The notes under the pieces: model-generated
The model's input: only the letters and a program-made list of their open reading frames with translations
Databases searched by the model: none
What the model was told of the DNA's origin: nothing
IMG/VR virus record: IMGVR_UViG_3300037453_000856
Location: 1,092-65,091 of that record
Origin: a virus
Taxonomy: Duplodnaviria > Caudoviricetes
Length of the DNA: 64,000 bases
Reading direction: 5' to 3' (one strand)
Shown: one piece after another, positions 15,440 through 58,247 of the stretch
How the letters are laid out: every line of letters begins with the position of its first letter
Numbering within the stretch: position 1 is the first letter of the stretch
Position numbers and translations under genes: made by a program

Positions 15440-18400
15440 ATGCTTTTTTCTCGAAACAGATATCATAGACAGGTCGAACAGTCCGACAAGCACCTTATAG
15501 TTAACGGCCCTACCAACCTTATGGTTGACAGCCGCGGTGTTGTTCGGCCTTTCGGTATTGGCCAGCCTCCTGCCGGCCCCTCCGCCAAACCTCTTGACAA
15601 GCAGGGCGTTCTTCGCCGCGATATATCTTATTCTTACCTTTACACTTATTTCGACTCCTACAATAATGCCGAGAGCGAACCTTCGCCCTGCACCGATTTC
15701 GTTGGCCTTTCCAAAGTCGGTTCTTTTTCCCTTATCGGCTTTGGCAGTGTTGGTGATTCTGTTTCTTTTTCCAAACTTATAATTACAGGCGACCTTGAAA
15801 AAGAAGATGATTATTATAAAAATCAGAGCATCGCTGTAAATGTAGTCAACAACGACCGCAAGACCGAATATTCCCAGTGGCAATATCGCAAGATCATTGG
15901 CTACAAGTGGGACGCTGAACAAAACGCCGGTATCTTTACCCTTTCTCGCCCTCTTATCAATGTCGACACTGATCCCGAGGACCGTAATTACGAGGTTAAG
16001 CTTTCCGATATAGAGTGTGAAGAAGGCGTTGTTGGCGGCAAGGCCGCCGGTAAGTCCAAGCTCATCCTTGATCCTTCCGCTTCCACCGATATTGCTTCTT
16101 ATCGTCTTAAGCTTATCCGTATTACCGCCGGCAAAGGCAAAGGCCAGGCTCGCATTATTGCCGATGCATGTCTTAACCCCTCCGGTCTTGTTGAAATAAC
16201 TCTTGCCAAACCTTGGAAAGTTAAGCCGAAGTTTGTCGACGACAATCTTCCCGAGGTCCAAAAAGCCCAGTCTGAGTGGCAGGCTAAAGAGCGCCTCCCT
16301 ATCTCTTATTTCAACCGTTGGTTTAGCTCCGAATATATGATCTACGATCCCATGCGTCATAGCGGGCTTGCTATTGACGGAGCTGTTACTTCTTACGACA
16401 AGAAAACTGGTTTAGTTGCTATCGACGGTCTTGGCAATGGGTCCGCTATTCTTTCTGGCAACGTTATCCGCTTTGTCCAAAAAACCGAAAAGAAGCAAGA
16501 AGGCGGCACCACTGTCGAGCGTTCTTCTTCTTCTCTTGTTGTTTCTCTCGAGAACTCCAACACCGCTGACGACTGGGTCGAGTCCGACGGTTTGATCGAC
16601 AAGACGATCCGCATTACTTCCGGTCCTGGTTCTGGCGCTACGTTTGTCATTTCCGCTGTCGAAAAGTCTGGTGAGAACTCTATCTCCCTTACTCTTTCCT
16701 CTGCTAACTATGCCGATTATAATAGCGAGGCTTTTTCTCTTACTGGCACCCCCAATGCTGCTTCTACTTTTGTTATCTTTTCTGACGATCCTATAAGCTC
16801 TCCTTCTCTTACCATTGGTGCTGTTTCTTCCAAGAGCGAAGGTACTCTTTATCGCAACGCCGATGCTGACACTTCTTATTCAAAAGATAGCAGCGGCATT
16901 TATTATATTGGAGATTCTGCCAATTTCATCCCTTATTCTGAGTGGAACAACGACAATGATAAGACCGGCAAGCTTTCTCTTTCCTTTCCCGGCGCTACTG
17001 TTCGTCTTTTCGAGCCCAAAAAAACTGTTGGTATTATTGTTCGTGATCCCGCTGCTGTTTCCGCTATAGCTTCTCTTTTCCCCGACCCTACCGTTGCCGA
17101 TCCTTCTATCGAAATCGACCTCATACTCTCCTTTGCCAACGGATCTCCTGACGTTTCTTTCCGCGCCGCTCTTCCTTCTCACGGGTATGTTTCTTACCAT
17201 TCGCCTTATTATGCCGTTCTTTTCTTTAACAATATTGGCACCGACGGAAAAACCAAATTTAAGAGCCTTCTTACTAAAAATAGTAAGTACATAGGAGACG
17301 ATGCCTGGTCTGTTTCCCTCGCTTCCTTGTATAATCACGGCGATGACAGTACCAAGACCGCTGATCCTCCTGACAACGATATTGATCCCGGATTTAAGAT
17401 TTACGTTTCCAGCCTTTCTGATCTTGGTCTTTCCTCTGACTCTCTTGTTTCCGGCGCTTATTCCCTTACTTTTACCGTTTCTCCCCGTATTCCTGAGGAC
17501 ATCATTCCTGGCAACCCTGACAAGGCCACTAAAAAGTATTCTTACAGGATCACTCGCCCCATTCTTTCCGTCGGTGATTCCAGCCCCGACGGGTCTCTCG
17601 CCCCTTATGTTGTTGTTTCTGGCGCTCTTCCTGTTCTTTACCTCGACCCCAAGCAGGAGCCCCATCAGCTTTTTCCGCTTCATGGTGCTGCCGCTACTGT
17701 TATTGGTAACTCTCTTATGGAGGGTTTTTATACCGGCTGGAAGGCATTTTTTTACAATGATGATCTAGAAGCCAAACCGAAGCAGAAGTTCAAAGAAGCT
17801 CGTGTTGCCGGTTATTTTGACGCTTCCGGTTCTCTTTTGCTCGACACTAAGCTTTCCGGCGTCGGGCCCGGTTGGTCTTGCGTCCTTTTCTCGGAATATT
17901 CCAGATGCCTTGGCACCGCTATTGCTCCTTACGACTCCGACGCCTTTTATGCTAAAAAGTCCGTTCCTGTAAAGGCCTATTACGATTACATTCCCCTCGA
18001 GGCCTTTGCTGCTTCCGAAAACAATCCCGAAGACGACACCGTTCCTTATGAAGGTTGGACCGTTCAAGTTCTTTCTTCTTCCAAACGTCGTAAAAACGGC
18101 ACCTCTAAGTATAAGGCTATTTCTTCAAAGAAGGCCGAAAAGCGCAAACGCACCATTGTCAAATATTTCCCCACTTCTCGCCGTGCTTATGTCTTTTATA
18201 AAGAAGAAGATGCTTCTTTTCCTGCTGACGTCTCTCAGTATTTTAAACCTCAGCTTGACGGGTCTGAACACCTGTGGCTTTATGACGAGTCTTCTGCTGT
18301 TGACACTCTCTTTAACGAAGATTCTGACTCTTCCGTCGAAAAGGACACTTCTGAATATGGCTGCCGTATCCAGGTAACCGATATTCGCCCGTGCCCTTAC

Positions 18401-20839
18401 GCTGGCGTTGACAAGATCAGGCTTTATCGCGCTACCGAGATTACCAACGCCTATCATCTCGTTGCCACTCTCGACAATAAGCTCCAGACCTACGAAGACA
18501 ACACTCCCGAGGACTACCTTCGCAAAGAGATCGACTTTAGTACCACCGTTTTGCCTCCTGCCGGCGTCTGTTGCTATTATAAAGGCCACTTTGCTGTTGG
18601 CGGCGTGCCCGACGGCACCAATCTTAGCGCCGAAACTGGCGACAATCCCGTCATAACTCCTATTCTTTCTTCTTTCTACTCTCTTTTCCCGTTCGATTAT
18701 GACAATCCCGTTTTCGACGGTTATTCTTATTCTAACGGTGGCACTTTTAACAGCACCATTATTAAGTCTGTTCCTGCTTTTTCTACTCCTGTTAACGCTT
18801 CCGTTAACTATTCTTTCCCCGTTTCCGACAAGCTTAAGGCTGAAAAACTCAATATTTCTTTTCTCATTTCCGAGCCCTCTTCTGACGGTCTTATCGCCTA
18901 CGCCCTTCAGGACATTCTTTCTGGCCGCACCCAGCCGATGCCTGTTGTTCACTTCACCGTTCCTCCCACGGATTCCGACAATCCTCTCGTTTCTTCCTAC
19001 TCTTCCGACTCTGATGATCATCCTGAAATTCAGCCCGATAGAGTTCATCTCCCGCGTTCTGCTTCTTCTTTGAATGATGCTTATCTTGGCTGCCGCCTCA
19101 CCATTACCGCCCCCGGCGACGATAAAAAGCCTTTTGTCGTTCTTCTCGGTACTGGCGATTATACCGGCGTTACGCGTTGCCTTGATCACGTTGATTATGC
19201 TTCTTTCTATACTCTCCCCGAAGGCGCTAAACGCTATCCCTCCTTTCCCTTCTCTCTCGACCGCATTTTGTGGTCTGTGAAACGCAGAACCGACGCTAAC
19301 GGTGTTTCTTATGTTTATTCCGATGCCTTTGGCAACGAATCCCTTCTTGAACCTATTTCCGTTTCCGGCCCTAATGGCTCCAAATACCTCTCCTTTGGAT
19401 TTACCGTTAATCAAGGCACCGACTTTTCCGCTATCCGCTTTGGATTAGGCGGTGTGTTCCTTAAAGACTCTATCGAATCTTCCGACTTCTCTCTTGTCGC
19501 CTTTTCTTTTTCTGACACTAACGACGCCTTGATCGAAAGCTATTTGCCTTCTCTCGGCAAGCTTCTCGAAGAGCGTTCTGCCGCCGGCCTTGTTATGCAG
19601 ATTCCCGGTTTGGTTTCCAACTTCACCAACGCCTCTATTTTTACCGACGATGATTCTACGCCCTTTGCCAGAACTGGCATTGTTGATGGCGACGATTTTT
19701 GGCGCATTGCTGTCTTTGATAAGTATAATTCTCCTTACAACACCAATCCTGGCCCTATAACTGTTTTCCCCAGGTCTAACGGTTATCTTGTTCATGTTTG
19801 CTCCAGCAGCGATCCTACCGCTTCCGAAAAGGTTGAGCTCGCTAGCGTTTTTACGTTTGCCGACGAATTTGGCGACAGGATTACCGGTCTTGTTCCTCGT
19901 CAGAAGTTTATTCTCGTTTTTAAGGAACGCGCCATTTACGCTCTCGATCCCGACGAGCCCTCCACCAATCTTCTCAACTCCGAAGTAGGGTGTATCGCGC
20001 CCGATAGCATAGCTTCCGGTAGGTCTGGTGTTTATTGGCTTAGTGCCGATCGCCGCATTCTTCGTTCCAGCTTTACCGGCGATACCATTTACTATGCTTC
20101 CAAGGAGATTCAGCCCTGGCTCGACGGCAATCCCGCTTTCGGCGATGAGCTCTTTGACGAAACCCGCATTCGCGAGGTCAAAGCCACCTACGATGCCGAC
20201 ACTGATGAGTACATGATCGCCTTCCCGACCAAATCCGGCAAGCTTTTGCTTTTCGCCTTTTCCGACTCCGCTCAGACTTGGTTTAGGATCGTCGATCATA
20301 GCGGTACTTCCGATCTTTGTACCGAAAACGCCTTTAACTGCCTCTTTAAGAATCATGGCCGTGCCTCTTTCGCTTCTGACCACGGCGTCTATTCTTATAG
20401 TGAAGGCTATCGCTCTGGCGGCTTTTATCCGTGGAAATATGCTTCCACCTATCTTTCTGAGTCTAATGAAGGCCTCCGTAAGCATGTCAAGCGCATCCAG
20501 GTTATCAATCTTATTGACAAAAACCTTCCTGCGTCTCCTGTTCCTTGCGCCTATTTTGAGTTCTTCAGGGACCTCCTCGACACTCCTGAAGAGTCTTATC
20601 AGAACGAAGACAGGCACACCCGTAGATTCTTCGACACCAACAAGTTTGTTCAGTTTGTTCATGTTGGTCTTAGATCTCTTCTTTGGAACTTTGTTATGTA
20701 TTCCTCTGATCAGGACAAGGCTTCTTATGCCAATTTTGTCCGCATTCACGACTTTGTCCTCCACTATCGTAACAAACGCGAAGATGACCCTCGCTGGAAC
20801 GCAACCCCTTATACCGATCCGCCGATTAGAACAAATTAA
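15440..20839 (+). CDS. Tail nozzle / stabilisation protein (P22 gp10/T7 gp12-like beta-propeller) with large insertions
   Basis: GIGQPPAGP...YTY...ESEPSP, KIRLYRAT, DRITGLVPRQKFILVFKERAIY, VGCIAPDSI...GVYWLS. Confidence 0.75.
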   Translation: MLFSRNRYHRQVEQSDKHLIVNGPTNLMVDSRGVVRPFGIGQPPAGPSAKPLDKQGVLRRDISYSYLYTYFDSYNNAESEPSPCTDFVGLSKVGSFSLIGFGSVGDSVSFSKLIITGDLEKEDDYYKNQSIAVNVVNNDRKTEYSQWQYRKIIGYKWDAEQNAGIFTLSRPLINVDTDPEDRNYEVKLSDIECEEGVVGGKAAGKSKLILDPSASTDIASYRLKLIRITAGKGKGQARIIADACLNPSGLVEITLAKPWKVKPKFVDDNLPEVQKAQSEWQAKERLPISYFNRWFSSEYMIYDPMRHSGLAIDGAVTSYDKKTGLVAIDGLGNGSAILSGNVIRFVQKTEKKQEGGTTVERSSSSLVVSLENSNTADDWVESDGLIDKTIRITSGPGSGATFVISAVEKSGENSISLTLSSANYADYNSEAFSLTGTPNAASTFVIFSDDPISSPSLTIGAVSSKSEGTLYRNADADTSYSKDSSGIYYIGDSANFIPYSEWNNDNDKTGKLSLSFPGATVRLFEPKKTVGIIVRDPAAVSAIASLFPDPTVADPSIEIDLILSFANGSPDVSFRAALPSHGYVSYHSPYYAVLFFNNIGTDGKTKFKSLLTKNSKYIGDDAWSVSLASLYNHGDDSTKTADPPDNDIDPGFKIYVSSLSDLGLSSDSLVSGAYSLTFTVSPRIPEDIIPGNPDKATKKYSYRITRPILSVGDSSPDGSLAPYVVVSGALPVLYLDPKQEPHQLFPLHGAAATVIGNSLMEGFYTGWKAFFYNDDLEAKPKQKFKEARVAGYFDASGSLLLDTKLSGVGPGWSCVLFSEYSRCLGTAIAPYDSDAFYAKKSVPVKAYYDYIPLEAFAASENNPEDDTVPYEGWTVQVLSSSKRRKNGTSKYKAISSKKAEKRKRTIVKYFPTSRRAYVFYKEEDASFPADVSQYFKPQLDGSEHLWLYDESSAVDTLFNEDSDSSVEKDTSEYGCRIQVTDIRPCPYAGVDKIRLYRATEITNAYHLVATLDNKLQTYEDNTPEDYLRKEIDFSTTVLPPAGVCCYYKGHFAVGGVPDGTNLSAETGDNPVITPILSSFYSLFPFDYDNPVFDGYSYSNGGTFNSTIIKSVPAFSTPVNASVNYSFPVSDKLKAEKLNISFLISEPSSDGLIAYALQDILSGRTQPMPVVHFTVPPTDSDNPLVSSYSSDSDDHPEIQPDRVHLPRSASSLNDAYLGCRLTITAPGDDKKPFVVLLGTGDYTGVTRCLDHVDYASFYTLPEGAKRYPSFPFSLDRILWSVKRRTDANGVSYVYSDAFGNESLLEPISVSGPNGSKYLSFGFTVNQGTDFSAIRFGLGGVFLKDSIESSDFSLVAFSFSDTNDALIESYLPSLGKLLEERSAAGLVMQIPGLVSNFTNASIFTDDDSTPFARTGIVDGDDFWRIAVFDKYNSPYNTNPGPITVFPRSNGYLVHVCSSSDPTASEKVELASVFTFADEFGDRITGLVPRQKFILVFKERAIYALDPDEPSTNLLNSEVGCIAPDSIASGRSGVYWLSADRRILRSSFTGDTIYYASKEIQPWLDGNPAFGDELFDETRIREVKATYDADTDEYMIAFPTKSGKLLLFAFSDSAQTWFRIVDHSGTSDLCTENAFNCLFKNHGRASFASDHGVYSYSEGYRSGGFYPWKYASTYLSESNEGLRKHVKRIQVINLIDKNLPASPVPCAYFEFFRDLLDTPEESYQNEDRHTRRFFDTNKFVQFVHVGLRSLLWNFVMYSSDQDKASYANFVRIHDFVLHYRNKREDDPRWNATPYTDPPIRTN

Positions 20840-32675: not shown

Positions 32676-32703
32676 ATTATATCACACTTTCCTTAAAAGT
32701 CAA
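32676..32703 (-). promoter_or_regulatory. Strong sigma70-type promoter
   Basis: TTGACT-16nt-TATAAT with extended -10 TG. Confidence 0.8.
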
Positions 32704-48662: not shown

Positions 48663-48945
48663 TCTGGTTCTCCTTTTGATTGGTGTTTGTTAGTTTGTCG
48701 TATGTTTCTTTGTTGTTTTCTTTCCAAAATTCAGCCATGTCTTCGCTTACTTTGTACACGGCCCAGCGTTTTCTTTTTGTTCTTATTGTTATTGTTGCGA
48801 CAGGCAGCTTGAAAATGTGCCTGATGTCGTGTATTCTTGCGCTTAACCGGTAGCATGTGTAGTCGGCTATTGCGCTTTTCTGTGTTATTTCCTTACCTTT
48901 CAGTAAGTCTAACAGTATTCTTTTTGCTTGTGCTTCTTCTTCCAT
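48649..48945 (-). CDS. Winged-helix DNA-binding protein
   Basis: LLKGKEITQKSA...YRLSARIHDIR pattern. Confidence 0.65.
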   Translation of the reverse strand: MEEEAQAKRILLDLLKGKEITQKSAIADYTCYRLSARIHDIRHIFKLPVATITIRTKRKRWAVYKVSEDMAEFWKENNKETYDKLTNTNQKENQNENC

Positions 48946-48957
48946 ACTTTTCTTTTT

Positions 48958-49003
48958 AAATTTATAAATTTTTAAATTTCACAAGAAATAAAAATATAAA
49001 TTT
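48958..49003. promoter_or_regulatory. AT-rich hairpin element H1 (loop ACAA/TTGT)
   Basis: Imperfect inverted repeat directly upstream of 48945 start. Confidence 0.75.
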
Positions 49004-49013
49004 ATCTTGCTTT

Positions 49014-49268
49014 TTATTCTTCTCTTTCTATCTTTCGTCCGCAGTTCGGGCAATAGTTAATGCCGGAGACATGGGCTTGGTAATAGCATTTTTCGCATTC
49101 CCAAGTGTTGAACTCTTCGGCAAGGTACCATTGTGTCGTTTCCTCTCGCTCTAGCGTCTTGATTGCGTTGTCAATCGATAAAAGCATGTCGTCGCTGTCT
49201 TCAAATATCAGCTCCTTTGCCAGCTCTTTTAAATCGCTTAAGCCTTTTATCGTTTCTTTGTTTGTCAT
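49014..49268 (-). CDS. Zn-ribbon protein, paralogue of 36012-36278
   Basis: MTNKETI...AIKTLEREE...CEKC...YCPNCGRKI. Confidence 0.75.
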   Translation of the reverse strand: MTNKETIKGLSDLKELAKELIFEDSDDMLLSIDNAIKTLEREETTQWYLAEEFNTWECEKCYYQAHVSGINYCPNCGRKIEREE

Positions 49269-49543
49269 TTTTCTTCCTTCTTCTCCGTTAATATTCCCTT
49301 TTCCCTTAGTTTGTTATAAGCAACCGCTTCTTTCTTTGTGCGGAAACATAAACGATCCCACTCAAAATCTTTTTGGCCGTTTGAAGCATACGTATAATCA
49401 ATCCAAAACCAATCATCGCCATCTGGTCTTGCTTTTATAAACTTTGCTTTTACCGGCTTGAAGTGGTTGTGATAGCCGTCGTGATAATCGTAAACAAGCA
49501 CCCAAATGGTATCGCCTTTCTTTAAGTTTTTTACGATAATCAT
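49265..49543 (-). CDS. SH3/KOW-like family protein
   Basis: LKKGDTIWV...CFRTKKEA. Confidence 0.7.
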   Translation of the reverse strand: MIIVKNLKKGDTIWVLVYDYHDGYHNHFKPVKAKFIKARPDGDDWFWIDYTYASNGQKDFEWDRLCFRTKKEAVAYNKLREKGILTEKKEEK

Positions 49544-50196
49544 TTTGTTTCCTCTTCTTGCTTTGGTATTGCTGGTATATTGGATAGACGGTTTTTTACT
49601 TCTTCAAGCTTCGCTTCCGTTTCTGCGAGTTTCTTTTCGTAATGTCTCGCGAGAACAATATATGCTTCGTGTTCTGTTTCGCACGGTTTGTATCTTGCGC
49701 TTCCCATTGTCCATTCGTAGTTTTCGACACTTGCTTCCCACCTCTTCTTTGTGGAACGTACAACTTCGCCTTTGTCAAAATCGACAACCCACACAACGGT
49801 CTCTTCTTCTTTTACCTTGGCAAGTTCGTCTTTGAGTGCTGATAATGTTGCTTTTCTTTGTCCTAGTTCTGTTTTGGCTAGTTCAACATATTTTTCTTGC
49901 AATTCAATTTCACCTTCTATCGCTTGCGATTTGGTTATGCCTACAAATTTGTGGTTGAACTTTGTTGGGAGTAAGCTGTCGGCTTTGAATTCAACGCAAT
50001 TTTCTTGCTTGCTTATAACAACCGCCTCTGACAAAAAGCCGTGATATATCCATACTTTATCGCCAGCTTTCAGCTGCTCAAATTCTTTTTCTGTCATTCC
50101 TTTTCTCCCTTTTTGTTGTTGTTGTGGCTTATCCAAACTAACTCTTCGTTCTTGTTGTAAAACGGGTATATAAGTTTTTGCCCGCAATACGGGCAA
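49540..50196 (-). CDS. Two-module SH3/KOW-like family protein (start approx 50097)
   Basis: MTEKEFEQLKAGDKVWI...GITKSQA, second module ...CETEHEA. Confidence 0.65.
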   Translation of the reverse strand: MPVLRAKTYIPVLQQERRVSLDKPQQQQKGRKGMTEKEFEQLKAGDKVWIYHGFLSEAVVISKQENCVEFKADSLLPTKFNHKFVGITKSQAIEGEIELQEKYVELAKTELGQRKATLSALKDELAKVKEEETVVWVVDFDKGEVVRSTKKRWEASVENYEWTMGSARYKPCETEHEAYIVLARHYEKKLAETEAKLEEVKNRLSNIPAIPKQEEETK

Positions 50197-50387
50197 TATC
50201 TTTCCTTCTTGCCTTGCGGTCTGTCTTTAAGCCCTTCCCAGAAAATGTAGTTCTTAACAACTTTGTGGCACGACGGGCATACTGATCTCACATTGTTGAA
50301 TATCTTTCCCCAGCCGTGAATCACCACTCGTTCCGCAATTTGTTTGTCGTTGTTCATTTTCTTCTTTTTAATCCGTGTTTCCGGCAT
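50094..50387 (-). CDS. Zn-ribbon protein
   Basis: CPSC...YCPYCGQKL. Confidence 0.65.
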   Translation of the reverse strand: MPETRIKKKKMNNDKQIAERVVIHGWGKIFNNVRSVCPSCHKVVKNYIFWEGLKDRPQGKKERYCPYCGQKLIYPFYNKNEELVWISHNNNKKGEKE

Positions 50388-50395
50388 AAATTATA

Positions 50396-50788
50396 TTAAA
50401 AGCTCTTTTCTGACGTCAATGTTTTGTTGATACTTGTTTGCTTTTCCAGCCATGTATCAAAAAGCCATTTTTCCGCCAGCTCGTTTATCTCTTGCGTTTC
50501 CGTGAAGAACTCAGGCAGTGAGTACACCTTGCCTATCACGATTATTTGGCGCATGTGTTCCTTGTCCGGCACTAGCATTCCCAGCAGGAATATGAATAGC
50601 CCTATCACGGCTATTTTCATTGCGCCCGCCGTTACGTCTTCCAGGTTTTTAACCTTGTACTTGTTCCTTAAGTATTCGGTCATGATCGTCAGCCCTAGGC
50701 CTCCCAGAGTTACCATAGCTCCTGCTACTCCCACGGCTGCTTTGACCCAGTTTGCCATTACCAGCATGTAGCTTTCAAACATGTTCAT
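50396..50788 (-). CDS. Two-TM membrane protein
   Basis: AAVGVAGAMVTLGGLGLTI and IAVIGLFIFLLGMLV. Confidence 0.7.
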   Translation of the reverse strand: MNMFESYMLVMANWVKAAVGVAGAMVTLGGLGLTIMTEYLRNKYKVKNLEDVTAGAMKIAVIGLFIFLLGMLVPDKEHMRQIIVIGKVYSLPEFFTETQEINELAEKWLFDTWLEKQTSINKTLTSEKSF

Positions 50789-50798
50789 ATCGTGTCTC

Positions 50799-51080
50799 CT
50801 ATTTGTAGTCTTCCATCAAGAAGCGCCTGAGCGTTTTGCAGCGCACGCTGTCCATTTTCTGGACGTGTTCCCTGTCTTGCGTGTCTTCGTGCGTATAGCA
50901 CGCCTTGATCTCGTCGGCTTTCAGGTTCCCGCTTTCGTCCAGCGCTCCTCTGAAGCCCAGTTTTACGCACCACTCTTTCGCTTTTTCCAAGACCGTTCCG
51001 TCGTCTCCTGTTTCCAGCGTGAATCTGATTGCGTTCGTCGGGTCGTAAGACCCCGGCACATAGAAGGTGACTTTACTCAT
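50799..51080 (-). CDS. Hypothetical protein
   Basis: GAGG SD. Confidence 0.6.
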   Translation of the reverse strand: MSKVTFYVPGSYDPTNAIRFTLETGDDGTVLEKAKEWCVKLGFRGALDESGNLKADEIKACYTHEDTQDREHVQKMDSVRCKTLRRFLMEDYK

Positions 51081-51348
51081 CTTCGTTTTCCTCTTGGCTT
51101 GGTGTTAACTCGATGTCCGGCAGCTTGCTGCCTGAATGGACCGTTATTTTTGTATCCCATTCAAAGAACGAGCTTTCCGGATAAAGTATTATCTTTTCGT
51201 CTTTGTAGTCTTTTCTTACGATCTCTTCCGCTTCCGTTTCGTTTTCGGCTTCTACTTGCACCCACTTTTGAAGCGTTTCCGTTATCTCGACTACGTAGTA
51301 GCTTTTCATTTTGTTTCCTCCTGTTCGCGCTCTTTCAGCTTTTTCCAA
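51073..51348 (-). CDS. DpnD/PcfM-like protein
   Basis: YVVEITETLQKWVQVEAENETEAEEIV...YKDEKIIL. Confidence 0.75.
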   Translation of the reverse strand: MEKAERARTGGNKMKSYYVVEITETLQKWVQVEAENETEAEEIVRKDYKDEKIILYPESSFFEWDTKITVHSGSKLPDIELTPSQEENEDE

Positions 51349-51707
51349 TCTTCCGCTATTATCCTTTTTTGGAGTTCCTTGAACATTTCCCTAGCGTCTT
51401 CTATCGACATTGTTTTTTTAGTTTGCCAGATGCTGGTTATTTTGATTTCCAGCAGGTACTCAAGTCTCCTGCGGATGTCGCACATGTCCTTGACGTCGAA
51501 GTCATAGAACATTATGTCTTCGTCTTTGTATTCCGTGTCTTCCAGGAACTTGTCAAGCTTTTGTCTGCGCTTTTCGTCCACGTTGTTTTTTAGGATGTCT
51601 TTCAGCCGCTCGTTTTCGAGTGTGCCCTCTTCCGTCACGCAGACGAATCCGCTTATGGTTTCGCGACTTTTGTCTGGTTCTTCGAACATTAAGCTTAATA
51701 TGTACAT
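51306..51707 (-). CDS. Hypothetical protein
   Basis: AAGGAG SD. Confidence 0.65.
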   Translation of the reverse strand: MYILSLMFEEPDKSRETISGFVCVTEEGTLENERLKDILKNNVDEKRRQKLDKFLEDTEYKDEDIMFYDFDVKDMCDIRRRLEYLLEIKITSIWQTKKTMSIEDAREMFKELQKRIIAEDWKKLKEREQEETK

Positions 51708-51717
51708 TGTGTTCTCC

Positions 51718-52068
51718 TTATGTGTAGCTTACCGCCTTTTTCAATACCAGATCGTCTATTATTTCGTCATATTTGACAAATCTCGGGTCTCTGTTGTTTT
51801 TCACGTAGAAATATGTGTCTTTGTAATACCCGCGAAAGACGTGGTATCCTGCTTTTACGCAGGCGTACAGCGCTTCGTTGAATTCTTCCGGCGAGAACGC
51901 CACCTTTTTTTCTTTTCCGGTTTCTTTGTCTTTGTATGTTACGTTTCTTCCGTGCCTCGGCTCATATTCTCCATGCCCTCCTAAGAAGTAGTCTACCAGA
52001 GCTTGTACCACTATCTCCCTTGGCTCTTTCGGGAAGTCATGTTCGTTCTTTTCTATGTTGATATTCAT
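51718..52068 (-). CDS. Hypothetical protein
   Basis: Packed early ORF. Confidence 0.65.
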   Translation of the reverse strand: MNINIEKNEHDFPKEPREIVVQALVDYFLGGHGEYEPRHGRNVTYKDKETGKEKKVAFSPEEFNEALYACVKAGYHVFRGYYKDTYFYVKNNRDPRFVKYDEIIDDLVLKKAVSYT

Positions 52069-52509
52069 TTACTTCTTCCACAGTTTGTTGGCGATCCTTT
52101 TCCAGATGGAGCCCCGGTTCTTTTTGTCCACTTCCTTTTCCAAGACTTCTATTTTGGTTTTCATGAGTTCGTTTTCCTGGCGGAATTTGACGATTTCCTT
52201 TTTCCAAAATTCGATTTCTTTCTGCTTGCTTTCCTGTTCTTGCAGCAGCCAGTCGAGCTCGTCGGTTCTGAGCAGCACCGTTTTGTCCACGGCAGCGTGC
52301 TCTTCTTGAGATTTCCTTCTCCTTCCGATGCTTTCCTTGCCGTCTTTGGCGCTCTGGAGGCTGAACCAGAAGTTCTCTGATTGCGTCTTGTAGCCCATTC
52401 TGTCCATGATCTTCGCATCAAACGTGATCAGCGTTCCTTCGCGAAGCTCGCCGATTCTGTTGAGGTACCAGATTTTTCTCGGTTTAGCGGTTTTCCTTTC
52501 CTTTTTCAT
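52069..52509 (-). CDS. SH3-like family protein with coiled coil
   Basis: KIWYL...FWFSLQSAKD; GAGGAG SD. Confidence 0.6.
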   Translation of the reverse strand: MKKERKTAKPRKIWYLNRIGELREGTLITFDAKIMDRMGYKTQSENFWFSLQSAKDGKESIGRRRKSQEEHAAVDKTVLLRTDELDWLLQEQESKQKEIEFWKKEIVKFRQENELMKTKIEVLEKEVDKKNRGSIWKRIANKLWKK

Positions 52510-52912
52510 CTTTGTTCTCCTCTTTTTCTTGTAATTTTCTTATTTCTTTTTGTATGCCCACGCGCCATGTCGTGAATCTTTTGTGTTCTTCGTAGAGGGT
52601 TTCTGTGTAGTCGTTCGTCGGTTTCCCGCTGACTTCCAATATCTTTTCTGTCAGCTCTGCGTCTACTACGTCTATCCACGCCAGCTCTTTTTCCAGAACT
52701 TCCAGTTCCGTTTTCCCGGCTTCGTCTTTTATTATTTCCACTATTTTTGCGTGGTTTTTGTCGAGCGGCAGCGCGACTGTCACCACGTACTTTTCTTCTT
52801 TCACCACCTTGCCTTTTTCCGTGTAAGGAGGGTTCGGTGTTAGGTACCACGGCCACCCGTACGCGTCTTTCTTGAAGACGTATATGTCGTCGCCCGCCTT
52901 GTAATCGTTCAT
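52484..52912 (-). CDS. SH3/KOW-like family protein
   Basis: YKAGDDIYVF...GKVV; GGGAG SD. Confidence 0.65.
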   Translation of the reverse strand: MNDYKAGDDIYVFKKDAYGWPWYLTPNPPYTEKGKVVKEEKYVVTVALPLDKNHAKIVEIIKDEAGKTELEVLEKELAWIDVVDAELTEKILEVSGKPTNDYTETLYEEHKRFTTWRVGIQKEIRKLQEKEENKDEKGKENR

Positions 52913-52935
52913 CTTGTTCTCCCTTTGTAATATAG

Positions 52936-52961
52936 GGCCTTTTAACGTCTTGCCCAGGACG
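52936..52961 (-). ncRNA. Isolated pseudoknot-family copy (PK8)
   Basis: Plus GGCC-TTTT-AACGTC-T-TGCC-CAG-GACG; 19 nt from stop of ArdC-like gene. Confidence 0.8.
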
Positions 52962-52979
52962 GATAGGTTCGCTGCTTGC

Positions 52980-53774
52980 TTAAGCGGTGGCAGCTTCCGC
53001 TTTTTCGGGACCCAGGAGCCTCTTGATGCAGAGGAGAGCCGCGGTCATCGCCTGGTAATACGCGGTCTTGTTGCATTTGACAAGATCGAGCATTTTCTGG
53101 CAATATTCCTCGCACTCCTGCTGGGTCTCGTAGATGTTTTCACCCATGCGGGCGAGCATCTGGTGGGAGAACAAAGCGGCAGCGAGTTCTTCCTTGGGCT
53201 TGGCTTCGTCGGTCATCCAGTAGCGTCTGGTGCCGGGGAGGAAGCCCATGGCGTGGAAGATCTCGTGCAGGACGGTCATCTTGTCGTGGACAGTCTTGAC
53301 CGCGTCCTTGGTCAGCGAGATGGTGACCTCGTTGGTGTCTTCGTCGAGCGTGGCCTTGTTGACCTCGTCAGGGTTGCAGACAAACCTGACGCCCATGGCC
53401 TTGACCTTATCCACTACAGCCTTGAACTCAGGGCGGGGTTCGCCGTCCTCGGCGACCTTGCCAACTCTCAGCCACTTGAGGCTCTTGACCTCGCGGTAGC
53501 CGGTCTTTGGATCGGGCTTTTTGTCGACAACGTAGCCATTTTCGACCACAAATTTGCTGGTGTCAACGCCGCGCTTCTTCGCGTAGTACTCGCTCTCGAA
53601 GTCGCCGGACTCGTTGAACACGCTCATGAGGCAGAACTTGTTGATCTTCCCGTTGAAAGAAACGGGGTTGTAATGATCTTCAATCGGCATTCCGGCCTTG
53701 TAGGCGTCGATCGCTTTCTTGTTCATACCGCACTTGTTGTGATAACTGTAAAGAGATTTGATGTTTTTGTCCAT
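52980..53774 (-). CDS. ArdC-like / polyvalent-protein zincin metallopeptidase
   Basis: VLHEIFHAMG HExxH, KEELAAALFS, C-terminal helices like the ArdC protease domain. Confidence 0.65.
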   Translation of the reverse strand: MDKNIKSLYSYHNKCGMNKKAIDAYKAGMPIEDHYNPVSFNGKINKFCLMSVFNESGDFESEYYAKKRGVDTSKFVVENGYVVDKKPDPKTGYREVKSLKWLRVGKVAEDGEPRPEFKAVVDKVKAMGVRFVCNPDEVNKATLDEDTNEVTISLTKDAVKTVHDKMTVLHEIFHAMGFLPGTRRYWMTDEAKPKEELAAALFSHQMLARMGENIYETQQECEEYCQKMLDLVKCNKTAYYQAMTAALLCIKRLLGPEKAEAATA

Positions 53775-53809
53775 AGTTTTACCTCTATGTTGTTGAATTT
53801 GTGTTGTTT

Positions 53810-53851
53810 AAAAATATTATTTTTAATTTCACAAGAAATAAAAATATTTTT
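53810..53851. promoter_or_regulatory. AT-rich hairpin element H2 (loop ACAA/TTGT)
   Basis: Imperfect inverted repeat upstream of 53774 start. Confidence 0.75.
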
Positions 53852-54507
53852 TATCTTTTCCTATATTTCATGTCGTAGTCGTAAGACGAGTCTTTGTATT
53901 CCCATCTCTGCCATTGCATGCAGCTTGACGTTACTTCCGCGTCGATCATCTGCGTTTTTTCCGCGAGCTTGATGATCTTGTCTTTGAAGTACTTGAGAGG
54001 GACCTCTTCCGTTTCGTAGTTTCTGAGATGTCCGCTGATATTGACGGTGTAGACGAACTCTCCGAGTTTCGTCTTTGCCTTGTAGATTTTGATCTCGCAG
54101 CCGCCTTCGCTGCCGACGGGCATGTAGCTGTCCGGGTCGGCTTTGTATTCGCCCCAGCGCTTGTCCATTTCCTTGTAGAACTCTTCGCTCCAGGCCCATT
54201 TGATGTTTCTTTTCTGGCGCTTTCTGTGCTCGGCCCAGTATCTGTCGTCCATGGCGTCTCGCTCTTTGCGGCTCTTGTGGTTCTTTTTCCACTTTGCCCA
54301 GCCGCCTTCTTTGCTGACTTCTCGCGGTGTATAGTTGTTCTCGTCTACGACGTTCCATTTGAGTTTCAGGCTTTTCCCGAAGTCTTTGTCCGGCTCCAAG
54401 GTCTTGCCTTGCTCAAGCATGAATCTCACTTTGCAATGTACGTGCGTCCAAATGCTCATAATTTGTTTTTTCCTTGTGGAGGGTTGGGGAGGCTTTTGCC
54501 TCCCCAT
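53851..54507 (-). CDS. Hypothetical protein with basic insertion
   Basis: 218 aa ORF; MSIWTHVH probable start. Confidence 0.65.
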   Translation of the reverse strand: MGRQKPPQPSTRKKQIMSIWTHVHCKVRFMLEQGKTLEPDKDFGKSLKLKWNVVDENNYTPREVSKEGGWAKWKKNHKSRKERDAMDDRYWAEHRKRQKRNIKWAWSEEFYKEMDKRWGEYKADPDSYMPVGSEGGCEIKIYKAKTKLGEFVYTVNISGHLRNYETEEVPLKYFKDKIIKLAEKTQMIDAEVTSSCMQWQRWEYKDSSYDYDMKYRKR

Positions 54508-54513
54508 TTGTTG

Positions 54514-54705
54514 TTAGTCCTCTAACTCGACCATCTCATCGATGGCGTTGATGACCTGGATGTCCTCGTCCGTCAGGCCGACGCTCTTTGCAAGGGCGTT
54601 TTCGAATTTGCGCTTCTTGCTGTTTAACTTGCTAATGGAATCGAGTGTTACCGCCTTCACAGAGGCGACCGAGTAAGGCTTTTTAGCAGCCATGGTAAAC
54701 TCCAC
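54514..54705 (-). CDS. Small protein (start probably MAAKK, approx 54693)
   Basis: GGAG SD before MAAKKPY. Confidence 0.65.
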   Translation of the reverse strand: MEFTMAAKKPYSVASVKAVTLDSISKLNSKKRKFENALAKSVGLTDEDIQVINAIDEMVELED

Positions 54706-54729
54706 TTTGTGGGTTAATTGGTGATTATG

Positions 54730-54759
54730 CTGGGCAGTTTAGCGACTTGCCCGGGTCGT
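54730..54759 (-). ncRNA. Isolated pseudoknot-family copy (PK6)
   Basis: Plus GGCA-GTTT-AGCGAC-T-TGCC-CGG-GTCGT; compensatory GAC/GTC swap relative to array copies. Confidence 0.8.
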
Positions 54760-54770
54760 CCAGGAGGCAA

Positions 54771-55511
54771 TCAGAGGCCTAAAGCCTTCAATCTGAGTTC
54801 GATTTCGGCTCTGAACTTCCTATTCTTGGCTCGTTCCTCGTCCCTGGCCTGACGCTCGTCGAGCTTTTCAACCTGGCGCCTGAGGGAACGCTCTTTGCGT
54901 TCCTGCTCTTTGCGTTCCTTGTTGATGGCTTCCTTTGTCCAGATGACTTGGATTCGTCCCTGGCATTTGAGCGCAGCGACTTCCGAATCCACCGCCGTGT
55001 TGTCATAGATGACTTCACCTGGGTAGCGCTCCATCTGCTTGGCCATGCGCTCGACCACGTGCTGAGGCACGCCGTGGATGTTGCTGCGGTTGCCCTTGAC
55101 GTGGATGACCTGGAAGTAAGCGTTGTACTTCTTAGCCAGCTTCCTGTAGAACTCGATGTGCGCGTTCTTGACGAAGGTGTTGGCCACAACGACGTACTTG
55201 CCCACGGCGAGGAGACGCTCGGCCTTCTGCTGGCAGTAAGCTATAGCCTTGCCTATGTACAGTTTGTTGTACTTGTACTCGAGATCGTCGTCGGTGAAGT
55301 AGTCGTCTTGTTCGACGGGAGCGACGGGCTGAGTCAGGCAGAAGTGCGCGGCGAGCTGCTCGGCAGCTTTTCTGGCCACGGTGGACTTGCCGGAACCCGG
55401 TATGCCCTTGAAGATTAAGAGGATTTTGCGACCGCGAGCGGCCTCGATGACGCTGGTCGTGATGCCAGCAACGTTGGCAGTGAGGGTGCCAGCCGTTTCA
55501 ACTTTGCTCAT
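54771..55511 (-). CDS. P-loop polynucleotide-kinase-like protein (AAA_33 / N4BP2-like)
   Basis: KGIPGSGKST, EQDDYF, VVVANTF, SNIHGVPQHVVERM. Confidence 0.85.
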   Translation of the reverse strand: MSKVETAGTLTANVAGITTSVIEAARGRKILLIFKGIPGSGKSTVARKAAEQLAAHFCLTQPVAPVEQDDYFTDDDLEYKYNKLYIGKAIAYCQQKAERLLAVGKYVVVANTFVKNAHIEFYRKLAKKYNAYFQVIHVKGNRSNIHGVPQHVVERMAKQMERYPGEVIYDNTAVDSEVAALKCQGRIQVIWTKEAINKERKEQERKERSLRRQVEKLDERQARDEERAKNRKFRAEIELRLKALGL

Positions 55512-55556
55512 AGCTTGTGCCTTTGAGTTGTGGTTAATTGTATAAATCCTTGTTGT

Positions 55557-55636
55557 TGGTGGAGGTGGCGGGACTCGAACCCGCTTCTCAAGCTTCCCTT
55601 TTCGGGCTTAAGCCTGATCGACGCCTTATCACCCCC
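55557..55636 (-). ncRNA. 80-nt tmRNA tRNA-like domain lacking the mRNA-like domain (mini-tmRNA)
   Basis: GGGGGUG/CACCUCC acceptor with G3-U70, A73, encoded CCA; stemless D-loop AUAAGGCGUCGA; 8-bp P2a UCAGGCUU/AAGCUUGA; GAA linker; T-arm GCGGG-UUCGAGU-CCCGC. Confidence 0.85.
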
Positions 55637-55652
55637 ATGCACAACAAATTTG

Positions 55653-56111
55653 TTAGTCCGTGAGGAAATCCAGAGCATCCTCGGCGATTGCTTTCGCCGT
55701 GGTTTCTATGTCCTGGAAACGCCTTGTGGGGCTGTTGCTCTTGCCCCAGTAAAACTCACCGTCGAACGACTTGTACCAGCCGCCCGTGATTATCGAGCTT
55801 CCGGTTGTGTCAATGGTCATAATGTCTACGCAAAAGACCTTCTCATCGTTCCCTACCGGGAAGTCTTCCATATCGTCCTGGCTTGTGCCGATTTCGAAAT
55901 GTGCGCACGTGACAGCTTCTGGATGCTCTTCGTTGACGATGTCAATCTCCTGGTTCCTTTCTGTGTCCTCGATCGTCTTGTTAAAGACGTATAGCGACCT
56001 GACGGTCGTGCACTTGGGATTGGAGTAAAACAGAGCGTACTCCCTGAGCAGCTCCTTTACGAGGTCGAAGACTTCGTAAAACTGCTCTATGTTCATGAAT
56101 TTGCTAAACAT
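55653..56111 (-). CDS. Hypothetical acidic protein
   Basis: AAGGAGG SD; downstream of hairpin H3. Confidence 0.75.
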   Translation of the reverse strand: MFSKFMNIEQFYEVFDLVKELLREYALFYSNPKCTTVRSLYVFNKTIEDTERNQEIDIVNEEHPEAVTCAHFEIGTSQDDMEDFPVGNDEKVFCVDIMTIDTTGSSIITGGWYKSFDGEFYWGKSNSPTRRFQDIETTAKAIAEDALDFLTD

Positions 56112-56131
56112 ATTGTCCTCCTTGGATTATG

Positions 56132-56178
56132 AAAATTTATATATTTTTTATTTCACCAAAAATAAAAATATAAATTTT
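56132..56178. promoter_or_regulatory. AT-rich hairpin element H3 (loop CACCAA)
   Basis: AAAATTTATATATTTTTTATTT / AAATAAAAATATAAATTTT. Confidence 0.75.
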
Positions 56179-56192
56179 AGACTTGTAAAAGC

Positions 56193-56219
56193 GGGCAGTT
56201 TCCCTTCTTACCCAGGAAG
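56193..56219 (-). ncRNA. Isolated pseudoknot-family copy (PK7)
   Basis: Plus GGCA-GTTT-CCCTTC-T-TACC-CAG-GAAG; U-G pair on minus strand; downstream of NADAR stop. Confidence 0.75.
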
Positions 56220-56254
56220 TGGCTGTACTAGCGATGTATGTACTTACTTGTAAG

Positions 56255-56674
56255 TTACTTGCCGTTCCTTATGGATTCCCTTTCTTCCATGAGAATCTTG
56301 CCGAGCATGTTCTTGCCATATCCGTTGCAGACACCCCAAAAGGTGTCGCCCCAGGTATTGCCTTCTACTAGCTCTTCGTCACCAGTGTCGATCAAAAGCT
56401 GTCTGAGCTCAGGGTTTTGGAACTTCTGGTGAATGACCCACTTCATGACTTCGACTTTAATCTTGTCCCAGTCCGGGCGAAGGCTAACGCTTCTGCCGAG
56501 CCTTTTCGCCTCTTTGCCCGAGAGCCCGGCGAACTTGGCACGCTCATCCATGTCTTTGGTCTTGAAAGACTGGAATACGGCTTCCGTGCAGGTGTATTCC
56601 TTGCCACCCATCGTGATGTTCATATTGAACATGTTGGAGAGGAAGAAATACTTACCTCTAAATCTGTCAATCAT
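56255..56674 (-). CDS. NADAR (YbiA-like) N-glycosidase / ADP-ribosyl hydrolase
   Basis: FRGKYFFLSNM, TEAVFQSFK, EAKRLGR, RPDWD, KF.NPEL..LL.TG, LVEGNTWGDTFWG, GKNMLGKILM. Confidence 0.92.
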   Translation of the reverse strand: MIDRFRGKYFFLSNMFNMNITMGGKEYTCTEAVFQSFKTKDMDERAKFAGLSGKEAKRLGRSVSLRPDWDKIKVEVMKWVIHQKFQNPELRQLLIDTGDEELVEGNTWGDTFWGVCNGYGKNMLGKILMEERESIRNGK

Positions 56675-56706
56675 ATTTAACTCCTTTTATTTATTTCTTG
56701 TTATAT

Positions 56707-56747
56707 GAAATTAATTATTTATTCCACCAAAGAATAAAAATAATTTC
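56707..56747. promoter_or_regulatory. AT-rich hairpin element H4 (loop CACCAAA)
   Basis: GAAATTAATTATTTATTC / GAATAAAAATAATTTC upstream of NADAR. Confidence 0.75.
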
Positions 56748-56760
56748 TGTTTTTCTTTTC

Positions 56761-57070
56761 TTTAATGTATATATTATGTAACATTATGTATATAACATAT
56801 ATAATCTTTATTTATATGTTATATATTATGTTATCTTTTCTTTTTGTCTTCCCTCTTAAAATCATTTTATTTTATATTCTTTCTCTCCCTTCATTCTTGG
56901 TAAGGTATATGTTATCTTGCATCCTACTTCCCTCCCGTGCAAAGCGCTTCGCTTGTCTCGCGCGCTCCCGAATCCGCGCGCTCACTTGTGGCTCTTAACG
57001 TTCGCGCTCATCCCGCACAAGGGCTCTGCGCTCACGAGCCACTTGAGTAGTACACTTGTGAAGCCTCGTG
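56761..57070. other. Candidate replication origin or standalone ncRNA: AT-rich tract next to GC-rich repeats
   Basis: Almost pure A/T tract 56761-56835; GCGCTC at 56962, 56978, 57004, 57028; CACTTGTG at 56983 and 57053. Confidence 0.45.
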
Positions 57071-57075
57071 CACAT

Positions 57076-57104
57076 ATGATAGCAAAAGTTTCACAAAAAG
57101 TCAA
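57076..57104 (-). promoter_or_regulatory. Sigma70-type promoter
   Basis: TTGACT-17nt-TATCAT immediately downstream of a terminator. Confidence 0.8.
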
Positions 57105-57142
57105 GAGGTGTGTTTTTGTGATTTTGGCACCTATGATACAGT

Positions 57143-57177
57143 AAAAAAAGTGGAGGCACACTTGCGTGTGCCCCCGC
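57143..57177 (-). terminator. Rho-independent terminator
   Basis: GGGGGCACAC-GCAA-GTGTGCCTCC then ACTTTTTTT on minus strand. Confidence 0.9.
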
Positions 57178-57188
57178 TTGTTTTCCCC

Positions 57189-57629
57189 TTAGAAGGGGAG
57201 GAGCTGGAAGCCCTTGCCGGCATCCTCGGAGAGGACGACGATCTTGTAGCCAGCCTTGCGCATGGACTGGATGCCCATGTGCTTGCGCTTGCCCTTGTCC
57301 TGCCAATCCGCGTCGCGGAGGACCTTGGTGGAGCCGAAGCGGCCCTCTTCGTCAACCTCGATCGCGCTGGCGTAGCACGCTTCGGTGAGCGTGTTGCCGC
57401 AGATGCCGCAGATGACGGACTCGGGGCCCTTGGCGCCGTTCTGGACGAAGCGCTTGAGGAGCAGCGTCGCAGAGCCGTTGGGGAAGACAACCGCGAACAC
57501 GGAGTTGCGCGGAGTGTTGTCAATCTCCTTGACAGAGGCTACTTCGGTAACCTTGCCGGCTTTGTAGGCCTTGTAGAAGTTCTTGACGGACTTTTCGAGA
57601 GAGGAGAAGGTAAAAGCTTTGGTGTTCAT
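57189..57629 (-). CDS. Hypothetical early protein, high-expression codon usage
   Basis: C-ending codons; AAGGA SD; between H5 and terminator. Confidence 0.8.
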   Translation of the reverse strand: MNTKAFTFSSLEKSVKNFYKAYKAGKVTEVASVKEIDNTPRNSVFAVVFPNGSATLLLKRFVQNGAKGPESVICGICGNTLTEACYASAIEVDEEGRFGSTKVLRDADWQDKGKRKHMGIQSMRKAGYKIVVLSEDAGKGFQLLPF

Positions 57630-57657
57630 AGTGTGAATCCTTGTGTTGTGATTAATT

Positions 57658-57710
57658 GGAAGTTAATTTATAATTTTTATTTCACCAAGAAATAAATGAA
57701 ATTAACTTCC
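57658..57710. promoter_or_regulatory. AT-rich hairpin element H5 (loop ACCAA)
   Basis: GGAAGTTAATTT...TTTATTTC / GAAATAAA...AAATTAACTTCC. Confidence 0.8.
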
Positions 57711-57731
57711 ACTTATTCCTTGGTGAACTTG

Positions 57732-58040
57732 TTATTCAGCCTTGATGCGGTTGCGGATGCGCCTGCTCAGGTCCTTCGCCATGAGTTCCGCATCGTCGCC
57801 CAGCGTCGCAAGGTCGTCCTTTTCATCGTAGAACATCCAGTACGCATCCGCTGTGATGTTGCCGCTCATCCTTATGACGAACCTCATCCTGAAGGTACCT
57901 TTCATATCCGGTATGAAACCATTCTGCATCTTCAGTTCAAGTTCGTTGTCGGAAAGCTTCTTGAGCTCCACGAAGAAGTTAGCACTGCTCAGTTCATAGA
58001 CCAGTTTTCTGATGAAGCCTTTCGGTTTGATAAGTTCCAT
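57732..58040 (-). CDS. First early gene, hypothetical
   Basis: AGGAGG SD. Confidence 0.8.
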   Translation of the reverse strand: MELIKPKGFIRKLVYELSSANFFVELKKLSDNELELKMQNGFIPDMKGTFRMRFVIRMSGNITADAYWMFYDEKDDLATLGDDAELMAKDLSRRIRNRIKAE

Positions 58041-58217
58041 ATTTTCCTCCTATGGTTAATTGTTATTCATATCACCTGATATAAAAGATTATTTATATCA
58101 CTTGATATTCAACATTGGTGTTTGGTTTGTTATGTGTGTGAGGAGAGGATCGGGGTCACTTATGCAATAGTAAATAAAAAAACAAAATATACTCAAGGGT
58201 CAACCCGTGCGTCCTAC

Positions 58218-58247
58218 TTGACTTTTTGGAAGCAAGTTTGGTAGATT
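58218..58247 (+). promoter_or_regulatory. Sigma70-type promoter for packaging operon
   Basis: TTGACT-18nt-TAGATT with extended TG; same TTGACTTTT start as the two minus-strand promoters. Confidence 0.6.

Follow-up and report, generated by a model that had tools for sequence, protein, structure and literature searches.

A family of A/T-rich hairpins between early genes of an uncultured gut phage as possible RNA punctuation of early messages

Analysis of a 64,000-nucleotide (nt) stretch from the virus record IMGVR_UViG_3300037453_000856 (the window, bases 1092–65091 of the 65,091-base pair (bp) record), which belongs to an uncultured tailed phage from cattle gut, showed that five A/T-rich hairpins in the leftward block of small genes (H1 to H5) are members of a real, lineage-specific family. 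Judging from predicted folds and gene context, they are tentatively read as intercistronic RNA hairpins that may be cut or bound in a way similar to the early RNase III sites of phage T7.

Anatomy of the five hairpins

An nhmmer profile built from the five sites retrieved exactly five copies in the window as well as in the whole record, all on the minus strand and at the positions where an earlier note on this DNA, made from the letters alone, had placed them. The pattern TTTATT-N1-2-TTG-N0-1-TGRAAT (15 fixed bases), which was derived from the same five copies, gave five matches, while 100 shuffles put the chance expectation at 0.00. Read on the coding (minus) strand, the copies have approximately 25–30 nt in common, roughly ATTTTTATTTC-TTG(G)T-GAAAT(A/T)AAAAAT, within which the upper stem and loop, TTTATTTC-TTG(G)T-GAAATAAA, are conserved. 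The core proposed in the earlier note, TTTC-AC(C)AA-GAAA, is the complement of this coding-strand core; the conserved part turned out to be longer than stated there. Exact-core searches of IMG/VR and GTDB produced scattered single matches in A/T-rich genomes, none of them with the full motif, and the Rfam 15 covariance models gave no family match, the H5 locus yielding chance-level microRNA models alone (E 0.23 and 4.4).

In RNA folding, each site formed one hairpin, with TTG(G)T at its centre, 15–21 pairs, nearly all of them A-U, equal to about two helical turns, and a loop of 4–5 nt (TTGT, TGGT or TTGGT); DNA folding parameters gave the same picture. The build is common to all five and consists of a lower stem, an asymmetric internal loop, the conserved upper stem and the 4–5-nt loop. 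An internal loop or bulges are present in five of the five predicted structures, and in every one of them the 3' arm exceeds the 5' arm by 2–4 unpaired bases. The folding energy was -19.9 kcal/mol for H5 (z -5.4) and ranged from -6.8 to -10.4 kcal/mol for H1–H4 (z -1.5 to -3.0). The stems contain 0–4 G-C pairs and are followed by A-rich tails with no T-run. Intrinsic terminators were rejected as an identity of these elements, which have neither a G/C stem nor a U-run and were not picked up by the terminator scan.

All five hairpins occupy tight intercistronic gaps on the minus strand. H1 (48957..49004; 18 pairs, loop TTGT) is located 9 nt past the stop of a gene for 84 amino acids (aa) and leaves 11 nt to the ATG at 48945 of a winged-helix gene (HTH_39), while H2 (53809..53853; 18 pairs, loop TTGT) overlaps with its 5' end the stop codon of the gene 54507..53851 and is separated by 34 nt from the ATG at 53774 of a zincin/ArdC-like gene. 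H3 (56132..56178; 20 pairs, a U.G closing pair and loop TGGT) comes immediately 3' of a pseudoknot-type element, with 20 nt left to the ATG at 56111 of an acidic 152-aa gene. H4 (56707..56747; 15 pairs), with the core variant TTCT/GGAA still paired, is found 32 nt before the ATG at 56674 of a NADAR gene. Finally, H5 (57657..57711; 21 pairs, loop TTGGT) precedes the ATG at 57629 by 27 nt and is composed of a 13-bp lower stem including a perfect 12-bp GGAAGTTAATTT/AAATTAACTTCC repeat, a 2x6 internal loop and an 8-bp upper stem. These gaps bear out the earlier observation that each hairpin is positioned just upstream of a minus-strand start.

The outer stems had been described in the earlier note as divergent but remaining paired. 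This is clear for H5 and partial for H4 and H2; it does not extend to H1 and H3, which share the nearly identical arms AAATTTATA / TATAAATTT. Because of this near identity and of the similar arms of H2, chimeras among H1–H3 folded as well as the native hairpins in arm-swap folding, a test that is non-discriminating here since A/T arms pair in many registers. Compared to H1, the outer stem of H2 has three two-sided A-T/T-A swaps. In H4, the outer stem is GAAATTA / TAATTTC, and its core is changed from TC...GA to CT...GG with both pairs kept, one of them as U.G (a single two-sided change plus the U.G). The perfect 12-bp outer stem of H5 is unrelated in sequence to the other copies. When the core was fixed and each flank was shuffled (scored for H2–H5, with H1 left unscored), the outer-arm complementarity had p about 0.001 in H5, 0.02 in H3, 0.07 in H4 and 0.11 in H2; the excess over shuffles is thus strong in H5 alone and moderate or absent in the other three. 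Bases are conserved at the tip, whereas elsewhere they vary without loss of the hairpin, as in H2, H4 and H5, whose lower stems are different but paired.

Position in the early gene block and strand asymmetry

The leftward block includes about 60 small genes and runs from 58040 to approximately 31650; the structural and packaging genes are oriented rightward, from 58248 across the record ends to 31637. The record termini overlap by 127 bp, indicating a circular assembly. Since the first leftward gene (57732..58040, minus; 102 aa, with a strong GGAGG ribosome site) precedes H5, this hairpin is intercistronic and does not stand at the head of the block. H1, H2 and H3 follow directly behind upstream genes, with no terminator in between. 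The earlier proposal that the hairpins head transcription units receives no support from this arrangement.

The only convincing intrinsic terminator of the block (57152..57175, minus; GC-rich, 7 G-C pairs and a T-run) closes a first unit made of the 102-aa gene, H5 and a 146-aa gene. After it comes a consensus host-type promoter (57076..57104, minus; TTGACT-17-TGcTATCAT), which could supply a transcript carrying H4, H3, H2 and H1: the scan found no terminator-like sites between the promoter at 57104 and H1 through H4, H3 and H2. The sites are placed between genes and downstream of host-type promoters. Three near-consensus promoters (32676-32703, minus; 57076-57104, minus; 58218-58247, plus) share TTGACTTTTT together with a TG-extended -10, and they hold the sole genomic copies of the TTGACTTTTT 9-mer. 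These promoters and the GC-rich terminator are host-type signals, indicating that the phage uses ordinary host-type promoters and an ordinary terminator; the five hairpins resemble neither.

The predicted helices showed a strand asymmetry. All seven non-Watson-Crick pairs are G.U on the coding strand (seven versus zero) and would become A.C on the other strand. One closing pair of this type is present in each of H3 and H4, three occur in an alternative hairpin of H5 and two, by manual reading, in an anti-core duplex of H4. The alternative hairpin of H5 (57681-57727, minus) is formed with an anti-core arm (57707..57727, minus), an inverted copy of the core that begins 5 nt past the stop of the 102-aa gene. 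The arm pairs with 57681-57701, giving 21 pairs with the left arm and loop of H5 and burying the H5 loop. In the sense RNA, this helix, including its three G.U pairs, had a predicted energy of -26.6 kcal/mol, which is stronger than H5 itself, versus -14.3 kcal/mol for the antisense. The anti-core arm of H4 (CATTAAAGAAAAGAAAA; 56751..56767, minus) pairs with the H4 left arm and loop in a duplex of 15 pairs, the two G.U included, at about -10.7 kcal/mol. Against shuffled upstream sequence, the arms were significant with p <= 0.001 for H5 and p = 0.01 for H4, while the same test detected no anti-core arm in H1–H3.

Such arms would be useful only in RNA transcribed from upstream, and a promoter has no use for them, which favors action of the core in RNA. 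On the whole, the predicted helices lean toward a core that acts in the sense-strand RNA rather than in DNA. The 2–4-nt difference in arm length also appears to fit a folded single strand better than a symmetric site for a protein on duplex DNA or an easily extruded cruciform. The alternative hairpin of H5 is a possible translation-coupled switch, whereby a ribosome terminating on the 102-aa gene could open the helix.

Possible modes of action

The early region of T7 contains five RNase III hairpins (R0.3, R0.5, R1, R1.1 and R1.3), which are located between the cistrons of a host-made early message. The hairpins described here are similar to them in being five early intercistronic elements, in the mutual similarity of the copies and in the location just ahead of a ribosome site. 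Another shared trait is a length of about two helical turns with an internal loop (PMC1540722). They differ from the T7 sites in that the stems are weak and almost purely A-U, the loop and upper stem are near-invariant and two copies have an anti-core arm, and in that the cleavage is only predicted. Substrates of the Escherichia coli RNase III typically have two helical turns, GC pairs can act as antideterminants, and internal loops restrict the enzyme to one strand, leaving a protective 3' hairpin (PMC1540722). The helices of H1–H5, with 18, 18, 20, 15 and 21 pairs, correspond to about two turns (at least 18 pairs in four of the five), and the internal loop or bulge expected of a one-strand cut is predicted in all of them. 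RNA processing was ranked first because the elements are built like a single-cut RNase III site, as two-turn A-U helices with a 3'-side internal loop, in which the upper stem is conserved while the lower one varies freely. The early hairpins of phage SP82 are another parallel: they are non-native RNase III targets in early messages, as the present ones would be, in a host with strong ribosome-binding sites. The SP82 sites are reportedly similar to one another in sequence. Their cleavage in SP82 early mRNA by the RNase III of Bacillus subtilis is reported in work cited in PMC4838370.

The proposed sequence of events would be as follows. Long early messages would be made by the host polymerase starting at the control region 58041-58247 and at the consensus promoter at 57104, and either the host RNase III or a phage protein reading the conserved tip would act on the hairpins. 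The upstream message would thereby keep a protective 3' hairpin, and the downstream counter-defence gene would receive a defined, open leader. At H5 and H4, the upstream anti-core arm could hold the core in the alternative helix. Both transcription units would then have their first hairpin masked until the arm is opened, at H5 possibly by the ribosome finishing the 102-aa gene. Anatomy, copy number, placement and strand asymmetry of the hairpins are direct observations; transcription through the sites, their cleavage or binding and the masking switch are what the sequence suggests. The choice of an RNA processing or regulatory site, one of the options in the earlier note, is favored by the sense-only wobble pairs, by the anti-core arms at H4 and H5 and by the upstream host-type promoter with no terminator before H4–H1, in addition to the two-turn helices with a 3'-side internal loop.

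Several points weigh against RNA processing. The pairing is predicted from the sequence of a single genome. The folds of H1–H4 are weak at the energies given above, and in longer contexts the predicted minimum-energy structure replaces H1, H2 and H4 by other weak pairings. The strand asymmetry is based on seven wobble pairs, five of which belong to two helices. The element is present at only 5 of about 25 gene junctions of the stretch, and it precedes accessory genes, a type that frequently comes with promoters of its own. No requirement of bacterial RNase III for a conserved loop is known, and for this reason the invariant tip either needs another reader or reflects common descent. Furthermore, a TTGnnn box is found 11–12 bp from a TAnnnW hexamer in five of the five copies, and in H5 the internal loop leaves a part of this hexamer unpaired, which would suit a hexamer kept for its sequence.

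Because of this constant geometry and the partly unpaired H5 hexamer, an activator-dependent promoter remains the main rival, possible if somewhat doubtful. Here, the box CTTG(G)TGAAAT near -30 would replace the -35 element with the help of a phage factor, and the host sigma would read a -10-like hexamer in the right arm. The model is the middle promoters of T4 with their MotA/AsiA sigma appropriation, the hairpin being secondary, as in the promoter-early stem-loop (PeSL) cassettes of T4-type phages. No minus-strand sigma-70 or sigma-A -35/-10 pair with a 16–18-bp spacer was present at any element (best fits 11–14 bp), as the earlier note had already found. Instead, TTGTGA or TTGGTG is followed after 12 bp (11 bp in H4) by TATAAA, TATTTT, TATAAA, TAATTT and TAAATT in H1 to H5, respectively, and this spacing equals the 12 +/- 1 bp between the MotA box and the -10 element of T4 middle promoters, where a conserved box also precedes a TAnnnT-type hexamer with no -35 at 17 bp (PMC2988021). 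The UP-element-like, A/T-rich left arm, the orientation of all five copies along the genes and the conservation of the H5 hexamer region despite its partly unpaired state are also in line with a promoter. Like the PeSL cassettes, in which a repeated intergenic stem-loop with promoter-like sequence precedes accessory early genes and may overlap the -35 or -10 box, the elements stand in front of accessory or counter-defence genes (NADAR, zincin/ArdC-like, helix-turn-helix), just as PeSLs precede ORFans (PMC2839356). However, the box sequence is unrelated to that of T4, whose middle promoters have no hairpin, and PeSLs have good sigma-70 -35/-10 boxes and G/C-rich terminator stems, neither of which is found here. 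Across 30 early and middle proteins, Pfam recognized neither a homologue of MotA or AsiA nor a sigma or any other transcription factor, although an unrelated factor could escape such a search. Since pure A/T sequence is rich in TAnnnW hexamers and the copies are homologous, the geometry is not independent evidence; moreover, the putative -10 is situated in the least conserved part, and the H1 leader would be only about 8 nt long. The genes with apparent immediate counter-defence roles (NADAR, PNK-like kinase, zincin/ArdC-like) would have to await a phage factor despite the consensus host promoter upstream. Finally, a promoter leaves the lower-stem complementarity of H5, the anti-core arms and the sense-only wobble pairs unexplained.

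The same sense-strand evidence that speaks for RNA processing is shared by RNA hairpins that are bound by a phage protein and not cut by RNase III, serving either as a translational operator beside the ribosome site or as a nut/boxB-like loading site for polymerase read-through of the 57152 terminator and onwards. Protein-binding hairpins usually show the combination seen here, in which an asymmetric loop and the upper stem are conserved and the lower stem is free to vary. In lambda, the order is pR-cro-nutR-tR1. The H5 region, with a promoter, a small 102-aa first gene, a hairpin and a terminator, recalls this arrangement. Such sites are nevertheless unlikely: nothing like a boxA partner was seen, boxB is far shorter than the present stems, five copies exceed the need for antitermination in a block with one terminator, distances of 11–34 nt to the start codon are awkward for a common translational operator, and the scans of early proteins recognized no RNA-binding domain. 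Improbable, too, is a role as operators in duplex DNA, where a phage regulator, dimeric or multimeric, would read a long A-tract inverted repeat. The phi29 p4 protein, for example, recognizes the target AACTTTTT-15 bp-AAAATGTT through A-tracts (PMC1904284). H1–H4 do hold TTTTT-N14-16-AAAAA (AAATAA in H4) around a 20–21-bp palindromic core, a winged-helix gene follows H1, and shorter palindromes of a similar style, with ATATCACYTGATAT twice, are present in the divergent control region. Yet conservation is highest in the non-palindromic centre TTG(G)TG, a single orientation is common to all copies, H5 lacks the T5 tract, and the 2–4-nt difference in arm length would break two-fold symmetry in a DNA duplex; that the lower stem of H5 is complementary regardless of its sequence would also not be explained.

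The cruciform promoters for an unrecognized injected polymerase, which the earlier note had listed alongside processing sites, found no support and are highly improbable. In this case, extruded DNA hairpins would be used by a virion-delivered polymerase as in phage N4. A/T-rich inverted repeats extrude easily. This ease of extrusion, a late operon with a host-type promoter and the presence of large unassigned virion proteins (1799, 1187 and 847 aa) would suit such a mechanism, and the combination of a conserved tip with a merely paired remainder of the stem, repeated a few times where the early region begins, corresponds to the logic of N4 early promoters (PMC4496689). The latter, however, combine a perfect stem of 5–7 bp and a loop of 3 nt with a GC-rich heptamer centred at -11, and need a giant T7-like virion polymerase (PMC4496689); none of these features was found, the stems here being 15–21 bp long and bulged, with loops of 4–5 nt and no GC-rich tip. 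No sequence is conserved at a fixed distance downstream of the hairpins, and the wobble pairs turn into A.C mismatches on the template strand. Pfam and PHROGs gave no polymerase family for the ten large virion-block proteins scanned and no sigma, and PDB sequence searches with the 1799- and 847-aa proteins retrieved no polymerase. The language-model feature searches of the large virion proteins also gave no signal of a T7-like or two-barrel polymerase, although they were uninformative. Most virion proteins have no recognizable fold, so that a divergent polymerase could escape. Aspartate-triad motifs (DxDxD, NADFDGD-like) occurred at chance-level frequency. A broader version, in which the conserved tip is the site of a dedicated phage factor, is distinctly unlikely: this might be an injected or early polymerase or an activator at extruded A/T hairpins, or a loop-specific endonuclease or antiterminator with masked sites, in which case one possibility is that the anti-core arms mask the sites until the upstream gene is translated.

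Neighboring signals, lineage and significance

The divergent region between the early and late blocks (58041-58247) contains two 14-bp palindromes at 58069-58082 and 58095-58108, ATATCACCTGATAT and ATATCACTTGATAT, with ATATCACYTGATAT occurring twice. By our own reading, each of them holds TGATAT, equal to an extended -10 motif, in both directions, and from its sequence the pair looks like an operator-controlled switch. The rightward promoter at 58218-58247 ends right at the annotated ATG of the first packaging-block gene, making either this start codon or the transcript start questionable. Another close match to the promoter consensus on the minus strand (50390-50419; TTGACG-18-TATAAT, with 11 of 12 positions matched) stops 2 nt short of the ATG listed for a 97-aa zinc-ribbon gene, whose message is either leaderless or begins translation at the next ATG.

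The motif CAATTAA(C/T)C is present in four copies, all on the minus strand (5' coordinates 58062, 57658, 55540 and 54720), at 20–30 nt before the first early start codons, with a C/A-rich leader (ACAACACAAGG and similar) behind each copy. The motif resembles the start of the T3 promoter AATTAACCC and probably represents a shared leader or translation element. A T3/T7-type promoter based on the CAATTAACC leader motif was rejected because no single-subunit polymerase was found. Past the promoter at 57104, the region 56750-57070 (minus) includes G/C-rich non-coding sequence over about 200 nt, in which GAGCGC and CACAAGTG recur, then a pure A/T tract with a palindrome of 26-nt arms (56779-56833) and then H4; it could act as a long structured leader, or else as a separate RNA or a replication origin. 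The phage has other unusual RNA elements, namely pseudoknot arrays and a truncated transfer-messenger RNA (tmRNA). The tmRNA-like gene (55557-55636, minus), in which the middle is missing, scored 56.6 bits with the Rfam tmRNA model versus a gathering score of 47; the match is only 80 nt long, yet it spans model positions 1–374.

GGAG-type ribosome sites are present at nearly all genes, arguing against a Bacteroidota host, and Bacteroidota-type -33/-7 promoters were rejected as an explanation of the hairpins on the same grounds. The host is probably not an enterobacterium. Most of the phage proteins have no match in Pfam or PHROGs, and the lineage is very poorly known. No near or distant relatives were found in the GenBank phage set at the DNA or protein level, in IMG/VR with TerL, a TerL alignment or an alignment of the 1799-aa protein domain as queries, or among GTDB representative genomes. 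The JGI metagenomes contained just two short TerL fragments, while seven closer TerL homologues, with 51–96% identity, were present in ENA, Logan and NCBI contigs. The 1799-aa virion protein (15440-20839, plus) has eight homologues among 1.84 billion cluster representatives, which share one beta-rich domain of approximately 320–470 residues (residues ~690–1165). The AlphaFold model of this only conserved domain had a mean predicted local distance difference test score of 49, too poor for a fold search.

Taken together, the folds and the context make a known kind of signal, the RNA punctuation of early messages, the leading if tentative reading of the hairpins, ahead of a new kind of promoter, and a factor-dependent promoter is the chief alternative. 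As processing or regulatory RNA, the elements would extend T7-style punctuation to the early messages of an unrelated gut phage and would represent a small, tractable RNA motif, equipped with its own masking arm in two of the copies. As promoters, they would make a new factor-dependent class and point to an unrecognized transcription factor among the first two genes. Either way, the hairpins mark separate early expression units, those of the NADAR protein, the acidic 152-aa protein, the zincin/ArdC-like protein and the winged-helix regulator.

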